A DNA stretch of 32,000 nt from Telmatocola sphagniphila (GTDB taxonomy: Bacteria; Planctomycetota; Planctomycetia; Gemmatales; Gemmataceae). A program made the position numbers and the translations under genes. The DNA lies in assembly GCF_018398935.1 (NCBI RefSeq), contig NZ_CP074694.1:1050001-1082000 (forward strand), in the 5' to 3' direction. Positions 337 to 21,742 of this stretch are shown piece after piece; positions within the stretch are counted from its first letter, which is position 1; each line of letters opens with the position of its first letter. The notes beneath the pieces are model-generated. The model searched no databases. It was not told the DNA's origin and worked only from the letters and a program-made list of their open reading frames with translations.

Positions 337-801
337 ATGCAAAAGAAATACATCGTTCGGTTGTCGGTCGAGGAGCAAGCGACGTTACAGGAGGTGATTC
401 GTCGGCAGAAGGGTTCGGCGATGAAGGTTCGCCGGGCGCAGATTTTGTTGAAGGCGGATGCGGATGGTCCGAACTGGACGGATGCCCGGATCGTGGAGGC
501 CTTCGAGTGTCGACGTCAAACGGTGGAGATGCTGCGAGAGCGTTTGGTGACGGAAGGGTTCGAGGTCGCGTTGAACGGAAAGAAGAAACCGCCGAGGCCG
601 ACGAAACTCGATGGTGAGCAAGAGGCGAAGGTGATCGCCATGCGGTTAGGGCCGCCGCCGGCCGGCTATGCGAACTGGACACTGAAACTGCTGGCCGATC
701 GGGTGGTCGCGTTGGAGATCGTCGATTCGATCAGTTACGAGACAGTGCGTCGGACACTCAAAAAAACGGCTTCACGGCGAAGTAGGTCGAGTACTGGGTG
801 A
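337..801 (+). CDS. IS630-family transposase N-terminal HTH/winged-helix fragment (intact ORF part of a broken transposase gene)
   Basis: The ORF starts at ATG 337 and encodes MQKKYIVRLSVEEQATLQEVIRRQKGSAMKVRRAQILLKADADGPNWTDARIVEAF...ANWTLKLLADRVV...ISYETVRRTLKK. The frame leaves the expected sequence at an A7 run (760-766). The expected continuation, KNGFTAK*VEYWVIPPKADAEFVAGMEDVLDVYAEPF..VVCMDEQP, lies in the -1 frame. Confidence 0.75.
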   Translation: MQKKYIVRLSVEEQATLQEVIRRQKGSAMKVRRAQILLKADADGPNWTDARIVEAFECRRQTVEMLRERLVTEGFEVALNGKKKPPRPTKLDGEQEAKVIAMRLGPPPAGYANWTLKLLADRVVALEIVDSISYETVRRTLKKTASRRSRSSTG

Positions 802-6783: not shown

Positions 6784-8160
6784 TTATTTCGTGGGTGGTC
6801 TGAGATCCCAAATGTCCGGCGTCACCGGGGCTCCGGGACGAGCTTTTTGAAGTCCTTTAACAATAACCACATCGCCCGCAGCCAAACCCTTGGTAATTGC
6901 AACAATGGAACGGGCCGAAACGGTCGTGGGAGCCGGTTCCGGCGGCGGTCCTTTGGCTGCGGGCGGCGGGGCGGCGCCTTCCGGCGGCGGTCCGGCGGGT
7001 TTTGGATTCGACTGATGAAGAACCCATTCGGTGGGAGCGGTCGAACCGGCTTCTTTGGCACGCCAAACACCCGTACCCAATGTGACCGTGCGTTTCTGAA
7101 CCATATTGTCTTTGTCCACCACGTAGACAAATTTGCCTTCCTGCCCCGTCATCAACGCATCTTCGGGAATGACCAGTTGTTCCTTCTTGGATCCGATGGG
7201 GACGCGAACGCGAACGAATAGACCGGGATAGAGCAATCGGATATTTCGCGGTTTCACAAAGGGATTTTGAAGTTTACCGCGAATGCGAATGGTTCCCGTC
7301 CCGGTATCCACGCGGTTTTCCTGGAAATCAATAATACCCGCATGAGGAAAGCCATCTTCCGAGGCCAGGCCCACCTCCACCGGAAATTTGGTGGTGTTCG
7401 GGTTTGCGGCGACCTGCTCCTGCAATCCCTTCTGATACTCGATGAAATCTCGCTCCGGAGCATCGAAGTACACATACAACGGGTCGAGACTGACAATACT
7501 TGTCAGAAGCGTGGCATCGGTCTGGCCAACCAGGTTTCCGGCCGTGACCAACGTTCGGCTGATCCGCCCGTTAATCGGAGACTTGATCAGTGTGTACTCG
7601 AGTTGCAGCTTGGCCGTATCCCGGGAAGCTTCCGCGGCCGCTTTCGATGCTATGGCGGAATCGAGTTGCGCTTTGTTGGAATCGAGAGTGGCCAGGGATT
7701 TATCGACATCGCTCTTGGAAATTGCCCCACCGCTCATGAGTTTACTGGTTCGGTCGTAATCCGCCTGCGCGGCCACAATTTGGGCTTTGGCATTGGCAAT
7801 ATCGGCCACGGATTTAGAAATGTCCGCTTCACTTTTCGCCAGAGACGCCTTGTATTCCCGCTGATCGATGAGGTAGAGCTTGTCCCCCGTCGAGACTTCC
7901 GCCCCTTCCTTGAAGTAGACCTCCATCAGGACGCCCTTCACCCGGGCGCGAATCTCCACGCTTTCGATGGCTTCGAGGTAGCCGTTGTATTCGTTGAAAC
8001 TTTGAACCGGAAACAGCACCGGCTTCGAGACCGTTACCAGTGGCGGAGGAGGGGCGCCTTGCTGACCGGCCGGTTTCTGCGTACAGCCGAAGGGTAGGAT
8101 CACCAGGGCGATCGCAAAAATTCGGTAAATCGGAAGCTTAGGCATCATTCGAGAAGACAT
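6784..8160 (-). CDS. RND efflux periplasmic adaptor (membrane fusion protein), lipoprotein
   Basis: The gene lies 68 nt upstream of the permease on the same strand. It has a lipobox, ILPFG-C, after a hydrophobic leader. It also has a coiled-coil hairpin (AKSEADISKSVADIANAKAQIVAAQADYDR...) and the beta-barrel segments typical of AcrA/HlyD_D23 proteins. I prefer the ATG at 8160 because GGAGG lies 8 nt upstream; the ORF-track start at 8175 is the alternative. Confidence 0.92.
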   Translation of the reverse strand: MSSRMMPKLPIYRIFAIALVILPFGCTQKPAGQQGAPPPPLVTVSKPVLFPVQSFNEYNGYLEAIESVEIRARVKGVLMEVYFKEGAEVSTGDKLYLIDQREYKASLAKSEADISKSVADIANAKAQIVAAQADYDRTSKLMSGGAISKSDVDKSLATLDSNKAQLDSAIASKAAAEASRDTAKLQLEYTLIKSPINGRISRTLVTAGNLVGQTDATLLTSIVSLDPLYVYFDAPERDFIEYQKGLQEQVAANPNTTKFPVEVGLASEDGFPHAGIIDFQENRVDTGTGTIRIRGKLQNPFVKPRNIRLLYPGLFVRVRVPIGSKKEQLVIPEDALMTGQEGKFVYVVDKDNMVQKRTVTLGTGVWRAKEAGSTAPTEWVLHQSNPKPAGPPPEGAAPPPAAKGPPPEPAPTTVSARSIVAITKGLAAGDVVIVKGLQKARPGAPVTPDIWDLRPPTK

Positions 8161-8229
8161 GGCAACTACCTCCATCCCGGACGAAAAGGAAGATAGGGTT
8201 GATTACATTTAATAGATATGTTATATTCA

Positions 8230-8247
8230 TGACCGACCGGTCAGTCA
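8230..8247. promoter_or_regulatory. Candidate TetR operator: 18-bp palindrome in the divergent efflux/TetR intergenic region
   Basis: TGACCGACC|GGTCAGTCA pairs at 8 of 9 positions. It lies ~70 nt upstream of the adaptor start and ~215 nt upstream of the TetR start, next to an AT-rich stretch (TATATT / TTAATAG). Confidence 0.35.
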
Positions 8248-8462
8248 ATAGTGGTTATCATTACGAGTCCGTTTCAAGATACGATTTGAACTCCCCAACC
8301 GCGAAGTGCATAGACGGAGTCCCCTCGACGAGAGTGGGTTCACTGCGGTAAGAATTTCCCTGAGCGGATTGGGGAATCGTATTGGAAATACTTGTGAAAC
8401 CGGCCTCCGGGAATCGGCAAATGTCGTAATCCTTTGAACTCGCTCGCAATTTTGGAGCCAAC

Positions 8463-9116
8463 ATGAAACAACTCTCGGCCCGGCGCGGCAGGCCGAAAGA
8501 TTCGGCTTTAATCGAACGACGGCGCGATTCGATTCTCGCGGCCGCTTCCCGGATTTTTGCCGCCAAGGGTTACCCCGACACAGATATCCAGGAGATCGCC
8601 GACCGGAGTGGCGTGGCCAAGGGGACCGTATATCTCTATTTCTCGAGCAAGGAAGAACTGTTTCTGGCCACCGTCGATAGGGCCATGCGCAGCTTAAGCG
8701 AGCGAATCAGCGCGGCAACCGAAGCGATCGAAGACCCCATTGATCGACTGGAAATGGGCGTAAAAACCTACTTCGCACACTTTCGGGAGAATCCGGCTCA
8801 CGCTGAGTTGTTGATCATCGAAAGAGCCGAATATCGCGATCGAAAGACGCCGACTTATATCGAACACAAACGCGTTAACTGCACCCGCTGGGAACCCATT
8901 TACGAGAGCCTGATCGAAATGGGACGAATTCGGCAGATGCCCGTCGACCGCATCATCCGGGTGACTTCCGATCTGATGTACGGCACAATGTTCACTGATC
9001 ATTTTTTAGAGAAAAAACGCACGCCGGAAGAGCAGGCCACGGACGTTCTGGATGTGGTTTTTCATGGTATTTTGACGCCGGCCGAATGCCGGCGCCGAAA
9101 GCTTCGCGGCGCGTAA
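8463..9116 (+). CDS. TetR/AcrR-family transcriptional regulator
   Basis: The N-terminal HTH signature is RRDSILAAASRIFAAKGYPDTDIQEIADRSGVAKGTVYLYFSSKEELF. The gene is divergent from the RND operon. Confidence 0.93.
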   Translation: MKQLSARRGRPKDSALIERRRDSILAAASRIFAAKGYPDTDIQEIADRSGVAKGTVYLYFSSKEELFLATVDRAMRSLSERISAATEAIEDPIDRLEMGVKTYFAHFRENPAHAELLIIERAEYRDRKTPTYIEHKRVNCTRWEPIYESLIEMGRIRQMPVDRIIRVTSDLMYGTMFTDHFLEKKRTPEEQATDVLDVVFHGILTPAECRRRKLRGA

Positions 9117-9121
9117 TACCC

Positions 9122-10405
9122 TTACTTCGCGGCCTTCCTCTGGTTCTCCAAAAACGGCCCAAACTGCTCGTAATAGGCTTTGTGATCGCCGCCATGATCG
9201 GCCTGCGGCATGATCACCACTTTCTTGCTGCCCGGAATCTGATTGCAGGCCGCGATCGCCCCTTCGGGCGGACAGACCGTATCGACGAGTCCGATGCCAA
9301 TCAGGGCAGGGCACTTGATATTTTTCGCGAAGTTGACGACATCGAAATACCGCGATGCCTCCAGCATCTTCTTCTCGTCTTTCTTCTGCCAGGTCCGGCT
9401 CGCCCAATTTGGCCAACCGGGAGCACGGCCCGCCGCCTTACCTGTATGATCGCAACCGGCGGGGACATTCGCGGCCACCGCCGTGACGGCCGGGTGAAAG
9501 CCTGCCGTGACCAGAGCCTGATATCCTCCCTGACTTCCACCCTGGACGACCAGAGTTTTCTTGTTCCAATCGGGACTTTGGGTCAGATAATCGACGGCCC
9601 GCCAGCAACTCAGAAACATCGGCAAGAAATAGCTCGTATTGCGGTCGTCGTTGCCGATGCCCGGGTAATCGTTCAGCTCTTTATTCGATTTCTGCTTATA
9701 AAACTCTTCCTTTTCATCGATCGGTAGATCGTGGGCCGAGATATTCAGAACCAGCCAGCCGTTTCGCGCGTAACCGAGAATCCAATCTTTCTGCAAGGGA
9801 TACACTCCCGCCCATTGCACCTGCAAAAGTGCGGGCAGGTTGGTTTTTCCCGTGGGTTTCGCTAATTGACCATGAATCTTGATGCCTCGGATATTATCCA
9901 GCGTGATCTTGTAATACTCAACGTTCTTGTCGCCGACATCGACTCGCTCCAACTGAGCATTCATTCCAATGTTGTTCAGCTGATCGATCTGATCCTTCCA
10001 AAATTTCTCGAAGTCTTCCGGCGGGGGAGAGGACGCTTTGATCTTTTCCGGCGCGAAAACGGCGCCGCCTAACGCACTCAATTCTTTGCCGCCGTCCTTG
10101 GGCTTGTATTTCACGGTCAGTAGTAGCGTTCCGGGATCATCCCGCATGGAGAGAATCTTTGCTTCTCCTTGGTTCAGTTCGACGGTTCCAGAAGTCAGTT
10201 TAGTCAAACCCCCCTTGGTAACTGTGTAGTCGATTGAGCCCTCAAGTGGCTTATCCCCCTCTTTGAGGGAAACCTTCCAGGTGACTTTCTGTCCGAGTTC
10301 ATAGATTCCCGATTTCTGATCGGGGCTGACCTTCAACTGCGGTGCGGCCTGCAGTCCAAAATTCAAAGCCAATAGCCAAAGACATGCGGAGAGTCGGATT
10401 AGCAT
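9122..10405 (-). CDS. Exported acetyl xylan esterase / cephalosporin-C deacetylase-like alpha/beta hydrolase (AXE1/CE7-type)
   Basis: The signal peptide is MLIRLSACLWLLALNFGLQAAP. The nucleophile elbow VVQGGSQGGYQAL has the GGSQGG motif characteristic of the AXE1 family, and a C-terminal ..MPQADHGG.. segment supplies a candidate catalytic His. Confidence 0.82.
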   Translation of the reverse strand: MLIRLSACLWLLALNFGLQAAPQLKVSPDQKSGIYELGQKVTWKVSLKEGDKPLEGSIDYTVTKGGLTKLTSGTVELNQGEAKILSMRDDPGTLLLTVKYKPKDGGKELSALGGAVFAPEKIKASSPPPEDFEKFWKDQIDQLNNIGMNAQLERVDVGDKNVEYYKITLDNIRGIKIHGQLAKPTGKTNLPALLQVQWAGVYPLQKDWILGYARNGWLVLNISAHDLPIDEKEEFYKQKSNKELNDYPGIGNDDRNTSYFLPMFLSCWRAVDYLTQSPDWNKKTLVVQGGSQGGYQALVTAGFHPAVTAVAANVPAGCDHTGKAAGRAPGWPNWASRTWQKKDEKKMLEASRYFDVVNFAKNIKCPALIGIGLVDTVCPPEGAIAACNQIPGSKKVVIMPQADHGGDHKAYYEQFGPFLENQRKAAK

Positions 10406-10555
10406 GGAACTTACCCATTGGAATGGCGGTTGATGACAAAACAGATTTTAAACAAGGCAGAAGGAATTATCCAGCAGTCGTTTTTTGTTAGCGTGGAAGT
10501 TTGGACTCAGACTATAGGCATCATATGAAAGCTGGAATAAGTTAGAGGAGTTACC

Positions 10556-11245
10556 ATGCATTCCTGGCAGTTCATGCTGAATATTTTCCTGGCCATCCTT
10601 TTTGGAGCCGCAATTGGCTTCGAGCGCCAGTGGCGGCATCACACGGCCGGGTTGCGCACGAATACTCTCGTCTCACTCGGTGCGGCCATGTTCGTCTCCC
10701 TGTCGTTGCTGATGGACGACAAGGCCAGCCCGACCCGGATCGCTTCCTACATCGTCAGCGGCCTGGGATTTCTCGGTGGCGGCGTGATTCTCCGCGACGG
10801 CATGAACGTCAAAGGCATCAACACCGCAGCCACCATCTGGTGTACTGGAGCGATTGGTACACTCTCCGGGGCGGGATTTCTGATCGAGGCTCTGACCGGA
10901 ACAATAGCAATTTTGTTTGTAAATATCGGACTGCGCCCGGTGGTGGCGAAGATTGAAACACGCCGTCGCATTGCCCCCGATGTGGAGACCTATTATCGCG
11001 TTCGCATTCGGTGTAAGGGGCATCACGAAGCGGTTGTGCGTATGATCCTGCTTCGCCATGTGGGAGCGAACGAACGGATGAGCATTCTGAGCCTGGCAAC
11101 AGACGAGTCGGAGAAAGATGGTCCGATGGTCGTCGCCGAAATTTATGCGGTCGAACGAAACGATCGTTTCATGGAAGATATTATTGCCCGAGTGAGCATT
11201 GAACCGGATGTGCTGGGCGCCAGCTGGGAGAAGGTGCAGACGTGA
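10556..11245 (+). CDS. mgtC: MgtC/SapB-family membrane protein
   Basis: The sequence AILFGAAIGFERQWRHHTAGLRTNTLVSLGAAMF...GLGFLGGGVILRDG..VKGINTAATIWCTGAIGTLSGAG is the conserved MgtC core, followed by a soluble ACT-like C-terminal domain. A GAGGAG Shine-Dalgarno sequence lies 7 nt upstream of the ATG. Confidence 0.9.
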   Translation: MHSWQFMLNIFLAILFGAAIGFERQWRHHTAGLRTNTLVSLGAAMFVSLSLLMDDKASPTRIASYIVSGLGFLGGGVILRDGMNVKGINTAATIWCTGAIGTLSGAGFLIEALTGTIAILFVNIGLRPVVAKIETRRRIAPDVETYYRVRIRCKGHHEAVVRMILLRHVGANERMSILSLATDESEKDGPMVVAEIYAVERNDRFMEDIIARVSIEPDVLGASWEKVQT

Positions 11246-11246
11246 T

Positions 11247-11265
11247 CTCGCCGGGAAGCGGCGAG
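11247..11265 (+). terminator. Candidate intrinsic terminator after mgtC
   Basis: CTCGCCG-GGAAG-CGGCGAG forms a perfect 7-bp GC-rich stem. It starts 2 nt after the stop codon and is followed by a moderately T-rich stretch (TATTCATGTCTCTTC). Confidence 0.4.
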
Positions 11266-11477
11266 TATTCATGTCTCTTCGATTTCCTTAACCTGTGATC
11301 TGGTATTGTCTTGGGTGGTACTGGCCACTTGCCAGTGCGTATTCAAATTAATTTGATCACTGATGCGTAGTTAAGAACGATTTCCGACTTTGAGATTGCC
11401 ATGTTTCTGGATTGTGATCGTGGGCTTTCAAACATCCTTCGCAATTGCGGGAAAAATTGCCCTTTTTTTCTTTAATC

Positions 11478-11675
11478 GGACGTGTAAGCGAGGGCAGATG
11501 AGTTGCGCTGCCTATCTTCGTTAGCCCGACGCGTAAGCGAGGGCAATAATAAATAATATTCCATCTCCGCGAACCGACTATACAAAGAAAGTTTGTGTAC
11601 ATTATTTATACAAAACAATTCCATTCATTGTTCATGGACCTATATATACTCACTGCCCTCGCCAACGCTTCGGGT
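11478..11675. repeat. Iteron-like repeats flanking an AT-rich core
   Basis: GGACGTGTAAGCGAGGGCA (11478-11496) and CGACGCGTAAGCGAGGGCA (11527-11545) are direct copies 49 bp apart. An inverted partial copy, CTGCCCTCGCCAACGC (from 11653), shares the core GCGAGGGCAG. The segment between them (11546-11650) is strongly AT-rich. Confidence 0.45.
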
Positions 11676-12163
11676 CAAACAAGACGGCGTCCAAAGCTTT
11701 CAAAATTGCCCCTCACAATCACGGTCGACAAGGCATTATCATGTGGCTAAACTGAAATACCCAGATCTTGTTTTAGCCTCAATCAACGACTGTTTTCCCA
11801 TTGCGAATTCAACATCGCCGGCTTTTGACATTGAAACAGCGAGAACAACAGATTCTCTATCAAAGCGGACGATGACACAAACCTCCTCTACTGAAACGGA
11901 GTCGTTAAAAGTGAATGTTGCCAGTTGGTTCACGACGCACCTCCACCAGTTGATAAAATAATAGAATGCGATTGCGGCGAGCTTATCAAAGTCACTTCCA
12001 CATACCCACATACTGGATTTGATACTTGGGTGCAGGAAGATGACCCTTCTGGGCTCCCCCACAACCCACCTTGCCCGAGAGCCTCCAACGGTTTAAGCTT
12101 TAGCGTGCGTTCCATCCAGAACGCATTCCTCACATCGTATCCCTCATTTCCCCGCTACCTGCC

Positions 12164-13237
12164 ATGACCCAGCCAAGAAAAAAACGAAAAATTCAGTACT
12201 TCGTACCACTCGACAAAATCACCGAACGGGCCGCCGAGTGGATCTGGAAGCCCTGGCTGCCGATCGGCAAACTATGCCTGCTCGACGGCGATCCCGGACA
12301 AGGTAAATCGCTTGTTACGCTCGATCTGGCTGCCCGAATTTCTCAAGGTCGATCTTTTCCCGATCGGCAACGAAACGCCCTCGGCCCCGCCAATGTGCTA
12401 CTCATTTGCTGCGAAGATAACTTGCGAGATACCGTGTTGCCGCGCTTGCAATCTTTGGGGGCGGATCTCTCGAGAATCTTCAGCTATCAGTCGAACTCGA
12501 CGAAGTCGATCCCTAACGCGCTCCCAAAATTTCCCAGAGATTTCCGCAAGCTGGAGTCGACTCTGCGCCGTACCAAGGCGAGACTCGTCATCGTCGACCC
12601 GCTTCTTCCATTTCTCAGCGCTTCCACGAATGGCATCACTCAACAATCGGTTCGTAAAGTCCTGGGGCCGCTGGCGAGGATGGCCGAGCGTCTTCAAGTG
12701 ACATTCCTCTTCGTCCGATTATTAAACAAAACCAACGGAAAAACAGCGATCTATCGAGGTTCGGGCAGTATGAGCATTCTTTCCAGCATGCGCAGTGCCC
12801 TGCTTATTGGCCGGCATCCCCACAATCCGGAGAAGAGGATTTTGGCTCCGGTGAAAAACAACCTCACCGCCGAAGCGCAAGGACTACAGTTTGTGCTGCA
12901 GAGCAAAGCGGAGGCCGTGAACGTGAAGTGGGAGGGGAAGGTGAATATTCGAGCCAACGAACTGATTGGAGATTTCAAAAGCCTGCCTCCCACCGAATGG
13001 CTGCGCGGCTTCCTCAGCGATAAACATTTCCAGAGCAAGAAGGTCTACGAGGCCGGTCTGAAAGCCGGCTATTCCAGCGCTACACTGGAACGGGCCAAAG
13101 CGACTCTGGGCATAAAATCCAAGGCCAAAAGGCATGCCAACGGCCGCATTGTCTGGTACTGGCTGCCTCCGGGCGAGAAGGATTTTCCGTGGGAGGAGAT
13201 CTGTGAACTCGGTTTTGAGCACAATCCTCATGATTGA
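12164..13237 (+). CDS. RepA-like / AAA_25-type RecA-fold ATPase of mobile-element origin
   Basis: The Walker A motif is LLDGDPGQGKSLVTLDLAA and the Walker B-like motif is ARLVIVDPLLPF. A later segment, YRGSGSMSILSSMRSALLI, and a C-terminal winged-helix-like tail (KKVYEAGLKAGYSSATLERAKATLGIKSKAK) follow. This architecture is typical of plasmid, phage and genomic-island replicative or primase-associated ATPases. Confidence 0.78.
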   Translation: MTQPRKKRKIQYFVPLDKITERAAEWIWKPWLPIGKLCLLDGDPGQGKSLVTLDLAARISQGRSFPDRQRNALGPANVLLICCEDNLRDTVLPRLQSLGADLSRIFSYQSNSTKSIPNALPKFPRDFRKLESTLRRTKARLVIVDPLLPFLSASTNGITQQSVRKVLGPLARMAERLQVTFLFVRLLNKTNGKTAIYRGSGSMSILSSMRSALLIGRHPHNPEKRILAPVKNNLTAEAQGLQFVLQSKAEAVNVKWEGKVNIRANELIGDFKSLPPTEWLRGFLSDKHFQSKKVYEAGLKAGYSSATLERAKATLGIKSKAKRHANGRIVWYWLPPGEKDFPWEEICELGFEHNPHD

Positions 13238-13460
13238 TCAAAATGCCGTTAATTCCCGAGAAATAGTCAAAGGTCATCAAATTCGCGTTTTCCACTATGT
13301 GAAAAATGATGATCTGATGACCTTTAAGGAGAAACCACTGCAAAAACGAGAAATAGCGAGTGGTAGGGATTGGTAGTAAATGTGAGAGTCGATTGAACAA
13401 AGACTCTGTTTTGAGTCGGGTAAAGTGTGAAAAGGGCGATTGGTTACTTCAGTTAGAGGC

Positions 13461-13625
13461 CTAGATTCCTCGTTTGCGGCCGAACACCAGGGAGAAGATC
13501 AGGAGGACAATAAATATGAAAAAGAGTATGCGGGCAATCTCTTCAGCTCCGCTGGCAATGCCTCCGAAACCGAAAATAGCGGCAATGATTGCGACAATAA
13601 AGAAACCGATGGCGTAACGAAGCAT
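13461..13625 (-). CDS. ytjA: Small membrane protein, YtjA/UPF0391 (DUF1328) family, 54 aa
   Basis: This gene is absent from the ORF track because it is under 60 aa. The reverse-strand ATG at 13625 gives [54 protein letters not shown], with a stop (TAG) at 13463-13461. It is collinear with E. coli YtjA as I remember it ([53 protein letters not shown]). Confidence 0.85.
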
Positions 13626-13789
13626 AAGCGACCTTTCTTAATAGGGAATAACATTCTACTCAAACTTCCAAATGAGGTGGCTCGTATAAGTGTCCGATCA
13701 GTCGATTGCCCGTGGGTGCCGGGCAAAGGAAACGAGTGGGTTGGGGGAGAGGACTCAGTGCAATCAAGAAATCGAGCAAAGGAATTATT

Positions 13790-13807
13790 GAGAGGAGTTT
13801 TCCTCTC
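13790..13807 (-). terminator. Candidate terminator downstream of the CobN-like operon
   Basis: GAGAGGA-GTTT-TCCTCTC forms a perfect 7-bp stem. It lies ~115 nt downstream of the DUF2149-like stop on the minus strand and is followed on that strand by AATAATTCCTTTGC. Confidence 0.3.
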
Positions 13808-13921
13808 TTATTATGAGAATATCACCGTTGCTCGGGGAGAGCAATGGCTTCGAAATCTATCAGGATGGCTACTGTCCTACGTGTGTCATGATGCTTTAGC
13901 GGATGCGGGGCCGAAAGACAG

Positions 13922-14236
13922 TTACTTCTTCTTTTCCGGAACGTAGACCACTTTGCCCGATTTGAGCCGATAAGCCGTACCGAGGCGTTCCCCTTCACCG
14001 GTAAGCTGGTTGTTCGTCATTCGCAACGTTTCCACTTCTTTCCCCTGTTGGGTTACGATCTCCATATCGGGCTCACCAGGATTCTTCACAGGCGTGCCGG
14101 AGGCTTCCGAATTCCGAGTCACCGTCCAGGTAGCTAACAGCACCGCCACGGCGAAGACCAGCCAGACATCGAATAGATTCAGAAGTCCCGCTGCCGGATC
14201 GTCTTCTTCCAGTTCCCACTTTCGTTTTTTACGCAT
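13922..14236 (-). CDS. DUF2149-like single-pass membrane protein (ExbD/TolR-like topology)
   Basis: The product is 104 aa. A basic and acidic N-terminus (MRKKRKWELEEDDPAAG) is followed by one TM helix (LLNLFDVWLVFAVAVLLATW) and a ~65-aa soluble C-terminal domain. The start overlaps the upstream stop by 8 nt (ATGCGTAA). The family call rests on remembered size, topology and neighbourhood with CobN and MotA/ExbB homologues, not on an alignment. Confidence 0.7.
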   Translation of the reverse strand: MRKKRKWELEEDDPAAGLLNLFDVWLVFAVAVLLATWTVTRNSEASGTPVKNPGEPDMEIVTQQGKEVETLRMTNNQLTGEGERLGTAYRLKSGKVVYVPEKKK

Positions 14237-14852
14237 GGTCGGGCTTCTCGGGATAGAGTCGATTCAGAATGTACTCGAGATTGTCTAGATCCCGACTGGC
14301 CCAGGAACGACGAACCAAGCCGATGCCATAGGAGATACAACTTGTGACCAAACCCACTACGGTGGCGGCGAAGGCGACCACTAAATTCGAAGAAAGCTGT
14401 TGGACATTACCAGAGCTCAAGCCAGTCAGAGCCGGACCCAATGGAATGAGTGTTCCGAGCAAACCCAACATCGGACTAACGCGAGTAAGAAAAGAGAGTT
14501 TAGCGATGACATCCGCCGTGTCGCTTTCGAGATCTGAGAGACGCTTTCGTAGAACATCGGCGGAAGCGGGTCGTGTCGGGAGTCCTCGAATGAGAGCAGC
14601 GATTAAAGGATTTCGCGCCGACTGGAGTTGCTTCCATACATCGGAGAGTTCCAATTGCGGTTCGTCGCAGGCCAGAACAAGGTTTTTCAATGGCCGCTGG
14701 TGTCGAGCGCGTATGGCCCAGTCTCTTAAAAATGTGCCAGACAGAACGAGCACACCGGCAAGACAAATGAGAACCGCTAGTAAGACGGGTATGAGCAAGG
14801 CTCCGGAGATGACGGACATTACCTCCGTGATCGATGCAACGGTTTTATCCAT
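14229..14852 (-). CDS. MotA/TolQ/ExbB-family proton channel protein
   Basis: There are three TM segments. The family signature SPMLGLLGTLIPLGPAL lies in the second and LVVAFAATVVGLVTSCISYGIGLV in the third. I prefer the ATG at 14852 (MDKTVASITEV...), which overlaps the CobN-like stop by 8 nt (ATGGATAA). The ORF-track start at 14882 would overlap by 38 nt. Confidence 0.88.
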   Translation of the reverse strand: MDKTVASITEVMSVISGALLIPVLLAVLICLAGVLVLSGTFLRDWAIRARHQRPLKNLVLACDEPQLELSDVWKQLQSARNPLIAALIRGLPTRPASADVLRKRLSDLESDTADVIAKLSFLTRVSPMLGLLGTLIPLGPALTGLSSGNVQQLSSNLVVAFAATVVGLVTSCISYGIGLVRRSWASRDLDNLEYILNRLYPEKPDHA

Positions 14853-17800
14853 TACAGGTTTCCCTCGAGCGTCGCATAGCACCCGCCAGAATCAAGAGGA
14901 TAACCACTCCGCCGACACTGAGTCTCAACCAACTCGGGTTAACGCTTACAGGAGCCGCATTCGTTTCAGCCATTTCATTACCGCTCACGCTGGCATTATT
15001 TTCCGAAGGGGCTGCGCTGGCGCCGGCGACATCATTTGGAGGCTGGGTCGATTTCGCGATAGCCGTCTGGTAAGCCGTTTTGATAGGGGCTTCATTCGGA
15101 GCATTCAGAAGGGTGCTGACCTCGGTTTGCAATTTCAGATTACCTCCGGTAGCCAGTCCGGCACTATCGCCATGTTTAGCTACGCTTTGAGCATATTCCA
15201 GAGCGAGTTCATGTCGGGTAGCCTCGTCCGCTTTCCAATCCCCTTTCCGGGCGGCTTCCAGCAGCGTGGCCAGAATTTCCTGCCGAGCGAAAGGATTCTC
15301 TTTATCCATCCAGTCCTTCAAATGAAGCCCATGTTTGTCTTTGGCATAAACAGCATGAATTTCTTTCCAAAGTTCTTGCGACACGGCTCCTTTACGGGTG
15401 GCTTCCCAACCGGAGGTATTTCGAACCACCTCCACCATCATCCCAGCGCCGGAGTAGCCGTTTTCCATCATACCCTTGATCCATTTAGGATTGAGCATAG
15501 TGACGTACGCTTCCGTGGTCAGCACTTCATCGAAGTCGCGGACTTTGGGATTGCCACGAACATCATTAAAGAGAAGTTTGGGTTGTTTACCCGTGGTGGA
15601 TTCGATCGCCAGACTCAATCCTCCGGCGTACTCGTACACATGGTGGTTGGTCAACGGTCCTGTCATATTCGAAGTCCAGGTGCGTAGTATGAGTTCCGTT
15701 CCTTTCATGGCGTCATCGTACAGACCGGGAACACTTTCGCCCCAGGCATCGCCAGTGAAGGCGTAGGACATGTTCTGTTTATAAATCTCAGCGATTTCCT
15801 TGCGATCGTCCCAGGCGCCGGTCTTGGGAACCAGATAGAGAATATTCGTCCCATGAGATCCCGGTTTGGCTCCGAACAAGCGGGCGGGAGCATAAAGTTT
15901 CACTTTATCGGGAGCGATACCTCGTTTGGTTAACTCGGCGGCCTTTTCCTGAGTGCCCGTTCGAACAAAATTGTCCGGTTCGTTTAGTTCAGATACTAAA
16001 CGAATCGCCTTATCGATCAGTTTTACTCGGGAGGTGAAGGTGTCTCGCATGCTGCCGCCGAGTGCCAGGAAGACATCGATGCGCGGGCGCTTGAGTTCAT
16101 CCCTCGGGATGATTTCGACATTCACTGCGAGATTGTTGTGATCCCAGACAGGCCGAACTCCCATCAGAAATAAAGCTTGCGATTCGGTGACGCCGTAATC
16201 GCGAATGGTTTCATGGCCGTTGAGATCGAGAGCGACCTTGCGAAGGTTGGGACGGTCTTTCAATAATTGTTCGACAAGTTGAACGCCGACTTCCCAGGCC
16301 TGTTTCGTCGGCAATTCCTCGGGGTTCAGGGCGTAGAGGTTGCGACCGGTCGGGATCGCGCTCGGATTACGGACTGGATCGGATCCGGGACCTGGGGAAA
16401 CGAACGTTCCTTCGAGTGCTCTCAGGATGTTTTCGACTTCTTTGCCGCTCTGCTTGAATTGTTCTCGGAACTCAACGACTCGCCGCAACGTTTCGACAAT
16501 TCGCTTGGGATCGCCGGGGGGAATTTTGGCTCCAGCTAATTTCAATACATCTTCGGGGGCGTATCCATCGGCGACGATCGACTTAACCATCGCTTCCAAT
16601 TGGGGTCGAACCCATAGGGGGATATGTTCTGGTTCTTTTGCGACCTCGGCAGGCACGGGCAGTACCTTCCCCAGATCGTCCAGGTACTGCTGTCCCAGCA
16701 TGCTGGTCAGAAACGGAATCAGATGTTTGGCTTCTGGCTCCTGGCCGAGCGTGTGCAATTTCACAGCAGTAACCGAAAGTTCTATCTGATGCAATTGAAA
16801 GGCAATCTGTTCGATTTCTTTGTCGGAGAGTTCCCCCGATTGACGCGAGAACGCCGCTTTGCGGGACGCCTCGGAAATGGTCTTTCGATACTTCTGCTTC
16901 AAAAGCCCTTCTTCCAATGCGGCGAATTTATCGATATCGTTGTGGAGATTTTGTAATTCCGGTGTCAGCCCCGTGGATTCCAGAGGCGGGGTCAGATGAT
17001 CGACCGTGACGGCGTAGGCCCGTCGTTTGGCCATGATAGCCTCGGCGATATTATCGATGATCCAGGGGTATATATTGGGCAGGTTACCGAGACAGATGTC
17101 GCTGAAACTATCACCGGAGAGGCCATTAGCTTTACCTGGCAACAACAGTTCAGTGCCGTGCGTTCCAAAGTGCATCACGGCGTCGGCCTTAAATTCTTTC
17201 TGAAGCCACCAGTAGCAGGCGAGGTATTGGTGCGGTGGAGGGACATCCTTGGCGTGCAGTAATTTTTCATCGTTCTCCGGGCCACGAGCGGGCTGTGGCA
17301 GAAGAATCACGTTGCCTAAATCGATGCGCGGAAGCACGATCGATTTCCGGTCAGCGGTTGTCATTTGAGCGCCGGGTGCCGGTCCATAGGCCTTGGTGAC
17401 TACACCCTGATTTGCATTACTCAGCGTGGCAAACCATTTGGAATATTCTGTAACTGGCCAGAGTACCGGTTTGCCGACTCGAATCAACTCGGCTAGATCT
17501 CCTCCGGCCCAGGTTCCGACATTGTGGCCATCTCGTTTCATCCATTCCAGAAGCTCCAGGGTGTCTTTGGGAAATTTCGTGAAAGTATAGCCGCGAGCTT
17601 TCATGGCCTTTAGAACGCGGAAAAGACTTTCCGGTCCGTCCAGGAACGCGCCGGTGGCGCTACCGCGACCGACATCGGATTTGCCGAGATATTTGTTGTA
17701 ATAGATGATGGCGATTTTCTTTTCGGCATTCGGCTTCTTCCGAAGATTCAACCAGGACATAACACGCCCGGTTAACCGCTCCACACGATCGGGAATGGGT

Positions 17801-18798
17801 TCGTGTAATTTGAAACCGCCGACGTTCGCCTTCATAGCTCCGGTAACTACCGGATCGATAATTCCGTGCACTTCCTGAGTGAGAAAATGCAGGCCCACAT
17901 CAGCCGGTAGCATTCCCTGAATTGAGGAATCCCATTCGGCCACGGTCGAGCGAAGCAACATCACATTCTTGATTATCGGGATGTCGAGTTGTTCCGCTCC
18001 GGTTTTTAAAGCAGTCGACGCGTGGTGATCGTCGATGATAAGGTCCGGTTTCCAGGCCTCCAGCAATTCTTGTTGTTTTCCGGTAGAGGATCCGCCGAAG
18101 AGCACAGCCACGTTTACTCCCCGTTTCTCGAGACTATTCACCAGGGCTTCGTAGACTTTCGTGTCGCCGGTCATCAGGAAGCCTTGTTGAACCAGAAGTG
18201 CCACCCGAGGATTGCCGAGTTGGAAGTGCGACGATTTCCCGGCCCATTGGAGGTAAGCCGGTACATCGGAGAAAAGATCGGAAGCGGCCGGGTGGTAGAC
18301 TCCGAAATCGGGCACGATCACGGGAGGAAGAATCTCATCTTTGCCTTTCAGGTATTTGTTGCGGACGTAAGCCAGGAGCCTTTTAGTATTTTCAAGTCCG
18401 TTATATTTCCAGTACTTATAGATTTCCGGATCCTTATGCAGCAGACCGGCTTGTTCAAAACTCTTCTGCGTATCGCGCTGTGACAGAGAGAGTACAATAA
18501 GCCCCGGTCTGTTCTTCTTGGCTTCGGTAACCCGTTCCTTCAATTTCGCGGCCCCATCCGGCTTGAGGTTCAGCAGAAAAATAACGTCGGTCGTGGAAAG
18601 CTGATTGGTTGTCACCTGATCCGTATCTTCCGTAGTAACGAATTTCGCATTCATCCCTAAACTGGTGGCGGCCCGATCAAACATCGTTTCGCCGTAATCC
18701 CAACCGCCAATCACCAACAGGTTTTCACCGGCATAGACCGCGCTTGAGGAAAGGAGTAAACTGGTGAGCAGGGGCAGAAAGGAGAGTATAGATTTCAC
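14845..18798 (-). CDS. cobN: CobN/ChlH-family (class I chelatase large subunit) homologue with N-terminal signal peptide and C-terminal membrane anchor
   Basis: The product is 1317 aa. It carries the conserved CobN/Mg-chelatase signature VMHFGTHGTELLLPGK and is collinear with the family throughout. The N-terminus MKSILSFLPLLTSLLLSSSAVYA|GE looks like a Sec signal peptide. The C-terminus has a low-complexity linker, then SWLRLSVGGVVILLILAGAM, then RRSRETCNG. Confidence 0.92.
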   Translation of the reverse strand: MKSILSFLPLLTSLLLSSSAVYAGENLLVIGGWDYGETMFDRAATSLGMNAKFVTTEDTDQVTTNQLSTTDVIFLLNLKPDGAAKLKERVTEAKKNRPGLIVLSLSQRDTQKSFEQAGLLHKDPEIYKYWKYNGLENTKRLLAYVRNKYLKGKDEILPPVIVPDFGVYHPAASDLFSDVPAYLQWAGKSSHFQLGNPRVALLVQQGFLMTGDTKVYEALVNSLEKRGVNVAVLFGGSSTGKQQELLEAWKPDLIIDDHHASTALKTGAEQLDIPIIKNVMLLRSTVAEWDSSIQGMLPADVGLHFLTQEVHGIIDPVVTGAMKANVGGFKLHEPIPDRVERLTGRVMSWLNLRKKPNAEKKIAIIYYNKYLGKSDVGRGSATGAFLDGPESLFRVLKAMKARGYTFTKFPKDTLELLEWMKRDGHNVGTWAGGDLAELIRVGKPVLWPVTEYSKWFATLSNANQGVVTKAYGPAPGAQMTTADRKSIVLPRIDLGNVILLPQPARGPENDEKLLHAKDVPPPHQYLACYWWLQKEFKADAVMHFGTHGTELLLPGKANGLSGDSFSDICLGNLPNIYPWIIDNIAEAIMAKRRAYAVTVDHLTPPLESTGLTPELQNLHNDIDKFAALEEGLLKQKYRKTISEASRKAAFSRQSGELSDKEIEQIAFQLHQIELSVTAVKLHTLGQEPEAKHLIPFLTSMLGQQYLDDLGKVLPVPAEVAKEPEHIPLWVRPQLEAMVKSIVADGYAPEDVLKLAGAKIPPGDPKRIVETLRRVVEFREQFKQSGKEVENILRALEGTFVSPGPGSDPVRNPSAIPTGRNLYALNPEELPTKQAWEVGVQLVEQLLKDRPNLRKVALDLNGHETIRDYGVTESQALFLMGVRPVWDHNNLAVNVEIIPRDELKRPRIDVFLALGGSMRDTFTSRVKLIDKAIRLVSELNEPDNFVRTGTQEKAAELTKRGIAPDKVKLYAPARLFGAKPGSHGTNILYLVPKTGAWDDRKEIAEIYKQNMSYAFTGDAWGESVPGLYDDAMKGTELILRTWTSNMTGPLTNHHVYEYAGGLSLAIESTTGKQPKLLFNDVRGNPKVRDFDEVLTTEAYVTMLNPKWIKGMMENGYSGAGMMVEVVRNTSGWEATRKGAVSQELWKEIHAVYAKDKHGLHLKDWMDKENPFARQEILATLLEAARKGDWKADEATRHELALEYAQSVAKHGDSAGLATGGNLKLQTEVSTLLNAPNEAPIKTAYQTAIAKSTQPPNDVAGASAAPSENNASVSGNEMAETNAAPVSVNPSWLRLSVGGVVILLILAGAMRRSRETCNG

Positions 18799-18827: not shown

Positions 18828-19265
18828 CTACTTTAAATCGAAATCGATGGCAATGTTCTGAGGAGCTACTGGGACGCGAAGTTTGGAGGAACGGTTGGAA
18901 TAGACCCCTTTGAGGTTGTCTGGCAGTGAGCCAGATTCGTCCATTGCAAGTCCCGGCTTCGGCCAACTGATTGTGACGATAAATTCACCAGCGGGCGAAC
19001 CATCCTTCGGCGCATAACTGGTAAGTTGGTAGATTCCATTTTCATCCGCAATTCCTCCCGCCACAACCTCCGGTTTGGGATTGTCCCGAGGCAAAAAGCT
19101 GATCCTGGCATTTTGCATCACCGTCCCCTTGTATGTCCGCTTTCCTTCCACGGGATAGACGGGGGGATGATTTGGCCCTCCCGAACAGCCTAGGATCAGG
19201 AGGGGCAAACCCGAAAGAAACAACCCCCGAATTTCGCCAGCCATAAGTTTCACAGAACTTCTCAC
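18828..19265 (-). CDS. Small lipoprotein with carboxypeptidase-regulatory-like (transthyretin-like) beta-sandwich pattern
   Basis: The lipobox is LLILG-C. The pattern VEGKRTYKGTVMQNARISFLP...GGIADENGIYQLTS....GSPAGEFIVTISW matches the G.V...G.P...A.V.F....G.TDE.G.Y.L......G.Y.V motif of CarboxypepD_reg-like domains. The ORF-track start at 19265 is GTG; ATG at 19244 is the alternative. Confidence 0.7.
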   Translation of the reverse strand: MRSSVKLMAGEIRGLFLSGLPLLILGCSGGPNHPPVYPVEGKRTYKGTVMQNARISFLPRDNPKPEVVAGGIADENGIYQLTSYAPKDGSPAGEFIVTISWPKPGLAMDESGSLPDNLKGVYSNRSSKLRVPVAPQNIAIDFDLK

Positions 19266-19302: not shown

Positions 19303-20412
19303 TTAATCCAAAGGGCCGGGAATATCGCCGTAGCGAGCGGTTAATAATGCGGCCATGGTAGAAAGCGAGATATTTTTCGTGAGAAATCGCACCGATCCAT
19401 CTCCTAGACAGACTTGAGCTCCCCCCGTATGGAAGCTATACATCCCCCGGAAATTGCTGCAGTTGATTACGCAAGCGTCTCCGAGAGAGGAAGGAAAAGT
19501 TGATGCGTTCCACTGTTTCATTCCATCAGAACTGAAGATTCCCGCGCCGAAATTGTTGTTCTGAGCCCAGGCGCCAAACCCGTACGAAAGAGCGATATCG
19601 TTTGTAGGGTCATTCAGGCTGGCGCTGATGGCATAGGAGGGGAAGTTCGCAAAGCTGAGTTTGTTGCCACCGGCCACATACATCCAGGGCCGACCCCCCA
19701 TTTCGGAAAAAAGGATCGTGTTAGAGAGACCATCGGTTGCACCGATTAGTGTGTAACGCTTGGGTTGGGAGGTTGCGGAATAGGATTGCTGAGGTCCTAG
19801 AATGCCACTCAAATCCGAGCTACCGGCTAGCGGTGTCGAACTGTCGAAGTGATTGAGAATGGCGAAGTAGGTGGCACTAGCACCCGATAGTGCATAATAG
19901 TCGACGCGGGCCGCGGTGAATTGCCAGCCACCGCCGACAGGGTTGTTGGTATCCGAGAATGAGGAGCTCGGGCAAATGGCCGTGAAAACGTCGGATGTCG
20001 GGTTGGAAGGGCATTCCGCTACGGGTAAACGCGTTGTGATTACGCTGTTAAGGGCCTGATGGTGCCAGGCATAGTTGTAGAGCGTACCACCTTGCGCGGT
20101 GCATGTAGCCGAATACTGACTGAATAGATTGCCTTGTTCAATGAATGGAAGGAGAGGGGTCGTCCAGCTCAGCTCATTCGACGAGCCGTAAAGTGTGGGC
20201 AGGTAACCGAAGGTGAGTTCATAGTTGTGGCAGGCCAAACCAAACTGCCGCATGTTACTCTGACATTTCATGCGAGCGGCGGACTCCCGAACTTTTTGCA
20301 CCGCCGGGAGAAGTAGACCGATCAAAATGGCAATAATCGCGATCACTACCAGCAATTCGATGAGGGTAAAAGCCGCCGGTGGTACTCGTCGCTTATTTCT
20401 GGAAATCATCAA
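19303..20412 (-). CDS. DUF1559 protein with prepilin-type N-terminal cleavage/methylation domain and C-terminal H-X9-DG motif
   Basis: The N-terminus is ...[44 protein letters not shown], which is a type IV pilin-like leader plus the DUF1559 start. The C-terminus [18 protein letters not shown] has H, nine residues, then DG. This family is greatly expanded in Planctomycetota. Confidence 0.92.
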
Positions 20413-20447: not shown

Positions 20448-20467
20448 TGTAGTTAAAAATAACTACA
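20448..20467. promoter_or_regulatory. Perfect 8-bp inverted repeat upstream of the DUF1559/CobN-like cluster (candidate operator)
   Basis: TGTAGTTA-AAAA-TAACTACA lies 36 nt upstream of the DUF1559 start codon, inside a 415-bp AT-rich divergent intergenic region. Confidence 0.25.
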
Positions 20468-20827: not shown

Positions 20828-21742
20828 ATGAAACAGATCGTTGCTGCCTTAGTGCTAGTTTTCACCTCTACCGGGGTGCGGGCTCAGATTGGTGTGATAT
20901 CGCCGATCGAAGCGAACAAGTTAATCGAAAATCCCGATCCAGCCAAACGACCATTGGTGATCGACACCCGAGGAGGCTACAAGGATTATTTCCGCGGACA
21001 TCTTCCGACGGCACATCATCTCAACTTTGATACTCTTCGCGGCACCGATCACGGGGTTCCCGTTCAATATCTGCCGGATGATCTGACCAGGGCGCTTCTG
21101 GTGCGAGCAGGTGTGAATAAAAACCGGATGCACCTGATCTATGCCACGGGAGAAGAACTGCCGAACGATGAGATTCTGAGTGCGAGTATGGTGGCTTATG
21201 TACTGGAGAAATATGGTGTCCGAAACATCCAGATTGTAGATGGCGGACTCCCCGAATGGAAGAAACAGAAGCTACCCGTCACGCAGGAATACTTTGGGAA
21301 TCCCAGTGGGACTTTACCTGAAACAATGAACCTGGGTATAGCCCTAAACATAGACGACGTGCTTTCGCGGAAGGGCAAGAAAGGCGTTGTACTGGTCGAT
21401 GCCCGTCCAAAAAACGAGTATCTCGGAGAGGACGAGATCTGGCTTCGCAAAGGACACATCCCCGGGGCTATCAGTTTCCACTGGGCTCGCCTGATGGAAA
21501 AAGACAATACCCACAAATTCAAACCCTTCGAGCAAACCAAAGCCGCTCTCGAAGCGGCTGGCCTCACGGCTGACAAAGAAATTCTGGTATATTGTGGGAC
21601 TTCGCGCGAAGGTAGTCTTTTGCGATTCTATCTGAAACACGTTGCCAAATATCCCAATGTCCGACTTTATGAAGGTTCCTGGAAAGAGTACGTTTCGCTG
21701 AAGCAATACCCAGCAGAACGAACTGAAAACAAAGCTCAATAA
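20828..21742 (+). CDS. Exported two-domain rhodanese-family sulfurtransferase
   Basis: The signal peptide is MKQIVAALVLVFTSTGVRAQ. The first rhodanese domain is LVIDTRGGYKDYFRGHLPTAHHLNF, and the second is VLVDARPKNEYLGE...KGHIPGAISFHW with the active-site loop VYCGTSREGS. Confidence 0.88.
   Translation: MKQIVAALVLVFTSTGVRAQIGVISPIEANKLIENPDPAKRPLVIDTRGGYKDYFRGHLPTAHHLNFDTLRGTDHGVPVQYLPDDLTRALLVRAGVNKNRMHLIYATGEELPNDEILSASMVAYVLEKYGVRNIQIVDGGLPEWKKQKLPVTQEYFGNPSGTLPETMNLGIALNIDDVLSRKGKKGVVLVDARPKNEYLGEDEIWLRKGHIPGAISFHWARLMEKDNTHKFKPFEQTKAALEAAGLTADKEILVYCGTSREGSLLRFYLKHVAKYPNVRLYEGSWKEYVSLKQYPAERTENKAQ

Follow-up and report, generated by a model that had tools for sequence, protein, structure and literature searches.

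A predicted exported, membrane-held member of the class-I chelatase superfamily encoded beside ExbB-like and DUF2149 proteins in the planctomycete Telmatocola sphagniphila

The stretch of DNA considered here, hereafter the window, comprises 32,000 nucleotides (nt) from Telmatocola sphagniphila (contig NZ_CP074694.1, positions 1,050,001 to 1,082,000 of the forward strand). On its reverse strand lies an apparent operon, which opens with a DUF1559 pseudopilin-like gene and continues through a small lipoprotein-like open reading frame (ORF), a large gene of the CobN/ChlH family, a gene for an ExbB-like channel subunit and a gene for a DUF2149 protein (Table 1). We find that the product of the CobN-like gene is most probably a class-I chelatase (CobN/ChlH) superfamily protein that is exported by Sec and held to the membrane by a C-terminal helix. 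This reading is drawn from sequence comparisons, and we assign a probability of about 0.55 to the explanation of the locus of which it is the core.

The CobN-like gene and its family

The genes of the apparent operon are tightly packed. Gaps of 37 nt and 29 nt separate the DUF1559 gene from the lipoprotein-like ORF and the latter from the CobN-like gene, respectively. A preliminary description of this DNA had noted that the start codon of the ExbB-like gene overlaps the CobN stop codon, and the segment ATGGATAA indeed holds both the stop and the likely ATG start at 14852, with GAGGGA 8 nt upstream; the longest ORF of the ExbB-like gene opens at GTG 14882. The last 8 nt of the ExbB-like gene are shared with the start of the DUF2149 gene.

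The Pfam domain PF02514 (CobN/Mg_chel) matches the CobN-like protein over residues 127-1194 (15217..18420; E 7e-292). Its best solved relative is HmuS (9d26; E 9e-149), with ChlH (5e-126) and CobN (6e-111) behind it. The histidine of the HFGTHG block (H547) and the downstream glutamate (E586) are invariant columns of our alignment A1. Thus, the protein has what is expected of the large subunit of a class-I chelatase, namely a full-length PF02514 domain with this histidine and glutamate; however, it departs from the soluble cytoplasmic nature of these subunits in having a signal peptide and a C-terminal helix.

Close homologues are named "cobaltochelatase subunit CobN" in the databases, and CobN models are the top NCBIfam matches of the window protein. 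That it is an ordinary cytoplasmic cobaltochelatase of aerobic B12 synthesis, as these names imply, is nevertheless exceedingly improbable. All nine NCBIfam CobN/BchH models that match it do so below their curated cut-offs (best NF004644, 804 bits against 1248), its termini carry the export and anchoring signals described below, and it falls outside the cytoplasmic CobN/ChlH group in our tree. Moreover, the 32-kb window holds no AAA+ chelatase subunit of the ChlI/ChlD/CobS/CobT type, and neither further cob genes nor a B12 riboswitch were found near the CobN-like gene. We also observed that the CobN equivalogs NF004644 and NF004645 reach across the tether and C-terminal helix (14845-15063; model positions 1215-1281 of 1289 and 1543-1596 of 1597, respectively). 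Therefore, these models were apparently built on exported proteins of the HmuS/PA1923 type and pass the CobN name on to them. The resulting "cobaltochelatase CobN" label given by annotation pipelines inflates predictions of B12 synthesis in Planctomycetota, Verrucomicrobiota, many Proteobacteria and methanogens.

Table 1. Features of the apparent operon and of the CobN-like protein, in window coordinates.
Feature	Coordinates	Strand	Basis
DUF1559/prepilin-type N-terminal methylation/H-X9-DG pseudopilin-like gene, first of the apparent operon	19303..20412	-	PF07596 (E 3e-41), PF07963, TIGR04294
Small lipoprotein-like ORF, 145 residues, LILGC	18828..19265	-	ORF list
CobN/ChlH-family gene, 1317 residues, GTG start	14845..18798	-	ORF list, PF02514, solved-structure matches
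Predicted Sec signal peptide, residues 1-23 (MKSILSFLPLLTSLLLSSSAVYA), cleavage predicted before G24	18730..18798	-	Hydropathy of residues 3-22; small-x-small site
Mature enzyme body, residues 24-1245	15064..18729	-	Pairwise alignment to 9d26; motif blocks HFGTHG, NIAEA, NHHVYE
A/S/N/P-rich tether, residues 1246-1289, about 43 residues	14932..15063	-	Composition (A10 S6 N6 P5 of 43 residues)
Juxtamembrane motif V1271-S-G1273-N-E-M1276, general form [VI]xGxx[LM]	14971..14988	-	Conservation in A1 and clade scan
C-terminal transmembrane helix W1290-M1308 (WLRLSVGGVVILLILAGAM)	14875..14931	-	Hydropathy of residues 1286-1311; present throughout the 149-sequence clade
Basic tail RRSRETCNG (1309-1317) and stop codon	14845..14874	-	Basic cluster after the helix
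ExbB/TolQ/MotA-family channel subunit (HmuU-like), 207 residues from ATG 14852	14229..14852	-	PF01618 (E 3e-10, 40.3 bits; cut-off 22.9)
DUF2149 protein (HmuV-like), 104 residues	13922..14236	-	PF09919 (E 3e-23)

Leader, tether and C-terminal helix

On the Kyte-Doolittle scale (19-residue window, threshold 1.6), just two segments of the 1317-residue protein score at least 1.6, namely residues 3-22 and 1286-1311, with an internal maximum of 0.94. Hence, the leader and the C-terminal anchor put forward in the preliminary description are real in the sense that the sole hydrophobic segments of the protein sit at its two ends. The N-terminus reads MKSILSFLPLLTSLLLSSSAVYA followed by GENLL, with a lysine as its second residue, a hydrophobic core of 16 residues and V-Y-A preceding G24; neither a twin-arginine motif nor a lipobox cysteine is present in this leader. 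The sequence identity of the leader across 13 close homologues is just 21%, but a basic or polar start, a hydrophobic core and a small-x-small site are always retained, with the latter abutting a conserved block of the form [GAS]E..L[VI][ILV]GGWDYG (74% identical in the same homologues). As these properties persist while the sequence drifts, the leader behaves as a signal peptide, and the conserved small-x-small context supports the earlier suggestion of cleavage at V-Y-A. It had been allowed that a better start codon further downstream might remove the leader. A start at the next in-frame methionine, M39, would delete the conserved mature block, and the leader is therefore no start-codon artifact. 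The Zavarzinella homologue (P0008) likewise opens with MKSIL.

The linker ahead of the C-terminal helix is rich in A, S, N and P as first described; however, it spans about 43 rather than about 60 residues and is not the featureless low-complexity stretch that it was taken for, as it contains the motif V1271-S-G-N-E-M1276. In alignment A1, V1271 and G1273 are at least 90% conserved. Of 140 proteins of the exported clade, both bacterial and archaeal, 123 show the looser pattern [VIA]xGxx[LMIV] in the 75-residue stretch that precedes the helix, as against 13.6% of shuffled regions, an enrichment that is somewhat inflated because the pattern was picked after the alignment was seen. The motif lies at a median distance of 23 residues from the helix, with V or I at position 0 in 97% and L or M at position 5 in 96% of cases, while the tails of the Bacteroidota HmuS type show the variant form MVLKRKEL. 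This conserved [VI]xGxx[LM] tether motif just ahead of the helix is new here.

The hydrophobic helix followed by a short basic tail was also correctly recognized at the outset. Among 139 distinct C-termini, the helix is followed at once by R in 88% and by K in 12%, with R or K next in 70%, and glycine is frequent 2-4 residues ahead of the basic cluster (23-41% per position). By the positive-inside rule, the RRSR tail is placed in the cytoplasm. Taken together, these features predict a protein that is cut after VYA23, with a body of about 1220 residues in the periplasm and the tail inside the cell. The same location for the body, proposed in the preliminary description, gains support from the occurrence of leader, helix and tail throughout the clade described below, from the lack of an AAA+ gene in the window and from the published location of HmuS. 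The HmuS protein of Bacteroides thetaiotaomicron is membrane-bound, with anchoring predicted by N- and C-terminal helices that were removed for expression (Nath et al., EMBO J 2025, PMC12583661). Porphyromonas gingivalis HmuS made in Escherichia coli is found in the inner-membrane fraction and is accessible to proteinase K from the periplasmic side, and the same 2026 study states that a signal peptide and terminal helices are found in HmuS proteins but not in CobN and ChlH (PMC13227078). The HmuS papers thus already contrast this layout with that of the cytoplasmic enzymes, and the novelty implied in the preliminary description was overstated.

The arrangement of tether, helix and RRR cluster also recalls the C-terminal sorting signals of the exosortase/archaeosortase systems (PEP-CTERM, PGF-CTERM and MYXO-CTERM), in which a short motif precedes about 20 hydrophobic residues and an arginine cluster. 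The conserved motif upstream of the helix would fit such a cleavable signal, by which the enzyme would be released or attached to the surface. We consider this very improbable: in a search of six tails at E up to 10, all CTERM models stayed below their cut-offs (the best, IPTL-CTERM, gave 11.8 bits against 20.5, and MYXO-CTERM at most 9.7), the motif does not adjoin the helix given the median spacing stated above, and in the case of HmuS both activity and protein stay in the membrane fraction (PMC12583661; PMC13227078).

The exported clade and its genomic neighborhoods

Homologues of the window protein come from Gemmataceae-type genomes, with up to 82% identity, and then from Verrucomicrobiota, Pirellulales, Poribacteria, Bacteroidota-like proteins and Methanosarcinales. 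A few truncated sequences excepted, the first 73 of them (P0001-P0073) carry a hydrophobic segment at the N-terminus and, at the other end, a helix followed by a basic tail, and the first homologues of the CobN/ChlH type (P0074 and P0075) have neither leader nor C-terminal helix. We placed the database homologues and the proteins from 78 loci, obtained in a scan of representative species genomes, in a neighbor-joining tree of 194 near-full-length sequences; being distance-based and without support values, it gives only a provisional deep branching order. All proteins with the C-terminal helix fall in a single clade of 149 leaves, 140 of which score as helix-positive, the low scorers being truncated or mis-called ORFs. 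The remaining 45 sequences are cytoplasmic CobN/ChlH proteins outside this clade, with a C-terminal hydropathy of at most 0.7. Therefore, the alignment with CobN/ChlH and HmuS-type homologues that had been suggested as a check does show that leader and anchor mark one clade.

Within this clade the window protein belongs to a Gemmataceae group (cluster 0) that lies beside cluster 1, whose named members are from Verrucomicrobia, Poribacteria and Pirellulales. The clade further includes the HmuS-like proteins (cluster 7), a Pseudomonas/Burkholderiales group (cluster 8) and three archaeal groups. On this sequence-based placement, the window protein is most aptly assigned to the exported CobN-like clade, within which it occupies a Gemmataceae/Verrucomicrobia branch without a characterized member. 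More generally, exported enzymes of the chelatase fold that need no ATP and are linked to the ExbB-like/DUF2149 pair would form a pan-prokaryotic module, of which the heme-specific HmuS of Bacteroidota is just one branch.

Some members of the clade show expansions or unusual settings. Methanosarcinales (L031, L046, L058 and L063) have exported CobN-like paralogues of 1400-2300 residues in tandem sets of two or three, and longer proteins of the archaeal branch (P0069 and P0073) have extra N-terminal immunoglobulin-like or CarboxypepD_reg-type domains. Within the Methanolobus arrays (L046, L058 and L063) the tails of the paralogues are nearly alike, with the form GFW[RK]RRKF, and the pair in L031 ends in YWGYRRR; in L031, L058 and L063 the ExbB-like/DUF2149 pair is not within 8 kb. 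Cupriavidus sp. YR651 (L060) has an exported CobN-like gene and a gene of the cytoplasmic CobN type about 1.3 kb apart (7701-11984 and 13248-17096), and its exported gene, too, has no ExbB-like/DUF2149 pair within 8 kb.

In 44 of 51 bacterial loci and 9 of 20 archaeal ones, the exported CobN-like gene has ExbB-like and DUF2149 genes on its own strand at a distance of up to about 2 kb; where the pair is missing, the locus is in many cases a short contig or a tandem array of paralogues. In the branch of the window, the ExbB-like gene directly overlaps the CobN-like one. In cluster-7 loci a membrane ORF of 225-233 residues intervenes between them, and DUF2162 occupies this place in archaea, where it flanks the unit, and in Desulfobacterota. 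The ExbB-like protein shares the blocks GPMLGLMGTLIPMGPAL and SNLVVAF with 70 relatives. In the DUF2149 protein a basic N-terminus precedes the single membrane helix, and the outer domain is small and conserved; D23 (in NLFDV), together with N20, L21, G82, G86, A88 and Y98, is invariant in alignments A2 and A3. An AlphaFold2 model built from 47 sequences has a mean pLDDT (predicted local distance difference test) of 63.6 and is confident for helix 14-43 only. A single helix with an aspartate and a small outer domain is also the layout of ExbD, TolR and MotB, and the presence of an invariant aspartate, as in ExbD, in the predicted helix of DUF2149 is a new observation.

In the hmuY-R-S-T-U-V operon, hmuU codes for a MotA/TolQ/ExbB protein and hmuV for a DUF2149 protein, and reviews propose that heme or iron crosses the inner membrane by way of HmuTUV (PMC12094164; PMC13227078). 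By extension, the ExbB-like/DUF2149 pair might be an inner-membrane import path for the released metal or porphyrin, with the enzyme parked beside it and HmuT or DUF2162 joining elsewhere; the Pfam label of DUF2162 as a predicted transporter would agree with this. Yet, no membrane protein of the HmuT/DUF2162 type was found in the window or its whole branch, and ExbB/MotA-family proteins are in general proton-driven stators rather than solute carriers. Further, in Bacteroides the released iron is reported to be taken up by FeoB (PMC6460266). An import role of this kind is accordingly improbable.

Upstream of the CobN-like gene the planctomycetes differ from other lineages. In Verrucomicrobia, Poribacteria, Proteobacteria, Bacteroidota and the anammox planctomycetes (Brocadiales), the CobN-like gene has a TonB-dependent receptor gene as its neighbor. 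By contrast, in all 11 non-anammox planctomycete loci (the window, L001, L006, L010-L016 and L081) a DUF1559 gene flanks it on the same strand, upstream in 10 and downstream in L013, and there is no TonB-dependent receptor in these loci. This replacement of the receptor by a DUF1559 pseudopilin-like gene in planctomycetes is likewise new here. It offers a handle on a very large planctomycete family of unknown function, for which it suggests that a role in uptake may be considered. The only further conserved neighbor is a lipoprotein with four cysteines, whose gene closely precedes that for DUF1559 in five loci of the Pirellulales type (L011 6400-6774, L012 6464-6736, L014 6279-6587, L015 6415-6783 and L081 6483-6758). 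Its pattern CxxC...(about 21 residues)...CxxxC is TRASH- or treble-clef-like, with all Pfam matches below cut-off (best Rhodanese_C, E 0.0022; Arc_trans_TRASH, E 0.18). In the archaeal locus L003 a gene combining YHS and FrhB-like domains adjoins the CobN-like gene. The products of both could be metal-handling or redox partners. The small lipoprotein-like ORF of the window belongs to no Pfam or NCBIfam family and has one distant relative in 83 loci.

An AT-rich region upstream of the DUF1559 gene contains, about 36 nt from the start codon, a perfect inverted repeat of 8+8 nt (TGTAGTTA-TTTT-TAACTACA, 20448-20467), which could be an operator; no comparable palindrome was found upstream of the operon in eight related loci. 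Searches for riboswitches or other RNA signals found none in the window or in five related loci, no transfer RNA (tRNA) gene was found in the window, and a promoter and terminator scan performed no better than on shuffled sequence. The rest of the window codes for typical planctomycete families (PSCyt1/PSCyt2, PSD1 and DUF1501), an AcrB/HlyD efflux pair, MgtC and transposases. Downstream of the operon the fraction of guanine and cytosine dips to 0.47-0.48 at 11-12 and 13-14 kb, relative to about 0.53 for the window, with a gene of the AAA_25 (RecA/KaiC-like) family at 12164-13237 within the dip. Transposase-type genes lie near both ends of the window (337-801 and 30418-31947), and in Frigoriglobus (L001, 3265-6263) the operon is beside a tRNA, an integrase and a transposase, so that it may lie in mobile DNA. 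A rhodanese gene stands beside the operon in both genomes: in the window it is divergent and codes for a two-domain protein with a leader (20828-21742, forward strand), and in Frigoriglobus it is downstream and codes for a single domain (L001 13858-14268). This shared neighbor may be a coincidence.

Possible coupling to a proton-driven motor and relation to known systems

We propose that the enzyme, exported by Sec and held by its tether and W1290-M1308 in the topology predicted above, would pull the metal from an imported metal-tetrapyrrole in the periplasm in the manner of HmuS, without ATP or AAA+ partners and by means of the His/Glu pocket common to the whole superfamily. The CobN-like, ExbB-like and DUF2149 proteins would be made from one operon, and the last two resemble a proton-driven stator unit. 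This unit might act on the enzyme through the C-terminal helix and the [VI]xGxx[LM] tether motif, and thereby replace the cytoplasmic AAA+ motor of related enzymes. We found no paper in the literature searched that proposes a coupling of the CobN-like helix to an ExbB-like protein. Such direct coupling, put forward by analogy with other ExbB-family motors, is a plausible but tentative idea whose odds we place well below even.

The analogy rests on the TonB-ExbB-ExbD and TolA-TolQ-TolR systems. These likewise combine an ExbB-family subunit, a one-helix partner with an essential-looking aspartate, and a third protein, of which the large periplasmic part comes with an extended linker and just one membrane helix. 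In transducers of the TonB/TolA type the helix is N-terminal and carries an SHLS motif, and it is followed by a proline-rich spacer and a C-terminal TonB or TolA domain. In the CobN-like protein, however, the helix is C-terminal and without an SHLS-type motif, and Pfam reports no TonB or TolA domain; the resemblance is thus one of possible working and not of family membership.

Several observations tell against the coupling. The helix that would be gripped is only 40% identical among close homologues, in comparison with 73% for the body and 30% for the tether, and the bias in the motif enrichment noted above also belongs here. The pair is not near the CobN-like gene in 11 of 20 archaeal loci. 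As for DUF2149 being a homologue of ExbD/TolR, we tried this possibility and did not retain it: a profile search of the Protein Data Bank returned nothing significant (the best being a ComEA-like segment, E 1.3), and no more than a common layout, one helix with an invariant aspartate, can be asserted. Likewise, an apparent CobN::MotA_ExbB fusion in Poribacteria (P0038; L004 2873-6535 and L005 580-4242) was rejected as evidence for coupling. Alignments indicate that it is the product of an in-frame deletion that joins CobN residue ~1085 to ExbB residue ~111, so that the CobN tail with its helix is lost together with the first helix of ExbB, and it is probably a dead gene or an assembly artifact.

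The main alternative, which we regard as rather unlikely and slightly more so than the coupling itself, is that the helix is just an anchor, with the ExbB-like/DUF2149 pair powering uptake across the outer layer via a TonB-dependent receptor or, in planctomycetes, via a DUF1559 device. This agrees with the published assignment of HmuU and HmuV to the powering of HmuR (PMC12583661, Fig. 1 legend), with the receptor genes adjoining the CobN-like gene in the lineages listed above, and with the weak conservation of the helix sequence. Conversely, no TonB gene was noticed in the units examined, although no model search for TonB was made; a plain anchor would not need a conserved tether motif; and the gene link to the pair persists both in archaea, where an outer membrane is lacking, and in planctomycetes, with no receptor in the locus. 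These last points, and the overlapping stop and start codons of the three genes, speak for a direct action of the pair on the enzyme.

The coupling can be extended to a bolder and doubtful proposal, less likely than either of the foregoing: a proton-driven enzyme, in which an ExbB-like/DUF2149 stator would grip the helix and tether motif and do the conformational work of the AAA+ partners, with DUF1559 feeding the module in planctomycetes. If true, this would be the first motor of the 5:2 type to drive, in place of a receptor, an envelope tether or a rotor, the chemistry of an enzyme, and it would give the hugely expanded DUF1559 family its first concrete role.

Among known systems, the cytoplasmic CobN-CobS-CobT and ChlH-ChlI-ChlD chelatases share with the window protein PF02514 over its full length and the HFGTHG and E586 motifs. 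Their large subunits are soluble, cytoplasmic, metal-inserting and dependent on AAA+ ATPases, and they fall in a clade from which the window protein, with its export and anchor signals and with no such partner genes nearby, is excluded. Closer in layout is the Zur-regulated PA1922-PA1925 cluster of Pseudomonas aeruginosa, which zinc starvation induces 45- to 147-fold (PMC4542158). Its CobN-like protein PA1923 is exported and has a C-terminal helix, and the gene order CobN-like, ExbB-like, DUF2149 is the same (L059 and L079); it differs in lying on the cluster 8 branch and in having a TonB-dependent receptor upstream. From Geobacter, a cobN-exbB-exbD-tonB cluster lacking both cobS and cobT had already been noted in 2012 (PMC3403914).

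The closest comparison is with HmuS, which turns heme into protoporphyrin IX and Fe(II) in a reaction that requires NADH in vitro but no ATP (PMC12583661), and which gains in activity from the inner-membrane fraction (PMC13227078). The window protein shares with it the CobN/ChlH fold family, a hydrophobic N-terminus, a C-terminal helix, a predicted periplasm-facing body and, within the 32-kb window, the lack of AAA+ partner genes, and the ExbB-like (HmuU) and DUF2149 (HmuV) genes stand beside it as in the hmu operon. As topology and gene neighborhood have been published for the HmuS branch, neither is new for the window enzyme. The N-terminus differs in that it looks like a cleavable signal peptide in the window protein and is an uncleaved helix in HmuS.

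To compare functional residues, we mapped HmuS features by pairwise alignment to 9d26 and by multiple alignment with the HmuS-like proteins P0062, P0064, P0071 and P0072, of which P0062 bears Met-79/Gly-80 (FGMG, residues 78-80) at HmuS numbering and P0072 bears INMAHGRM like HmuS. A direct phmmer search with window residues 1-322 found ChlH and CobN only, and the N-terminal head (1-126) was therefore aligned to HmuS through these intermediates. Heme is the only demonstrated substrate, on the HmuS homologue, and it is the leading candidate in this organism as well, with a chance that we place a little short of even. The differences from HmuS lower this chance. The two proteins are only about 28-32% identical and lie on separate branches (clusters 0 and 7). 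Of the site-1 heme ligands of HmuS, Met-79, with Gly-80, corresponds to L78-K79 (LNLKP) in the window protein, and His-254 in the HGR motif is kept as H259, with GR replaced by AS; at site 2, in the LDHVYE motif, which reads NHHVYE here (H1052/H1053), His-1209 is kept and Asp-1208 is now a histidine. The Met-rich insertion of HmuS (about 120 residues) is lacking altogether: between the aligned stretches the window protein has about 158 residues as against about 312 in HmuS, and its residues 600-770 hold 2 methionines (1.2%). His-538/Glu-577, also of site 2, are kept as H547/E586, but do not discriminate because they are found superfamily-wide. Also to be counted against heme are the response of PA1923 to zinc and not iron (PMC4542158) and the missing site-1 ligands, on account of which zinc, cobalt or another metal may be the substrate metal instead, and our finding of neither a Fur or Zur box nor a riboswitch.

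Given the absence of the Met-rich insertion, of Met-79, of the HGR motif and of the hmuYRSTUV operon beyond its HmuU- and HmuV-like genes, the window protein is, as judged from its sequence, not an orthologue of HmuS. Neither an hmuR receptor nor an HmuT/DUF2162 membrane protein was found in the window or its branch; for hmuY no model search was made, and no family besides DUF1559 is shared upstream across the related loci. Instead, the DUF1559 pseudopilin-like and small lipoprotein genes lie upstream in the window. With no receptor or HmuT found in the locus and no TonB noticed, its minimal three-gene form of CobN-like, ExbB-like and DUF2149 genes is the cleanest system for addressing the role of HmuU and HmuV, which the HmuS papers left open.

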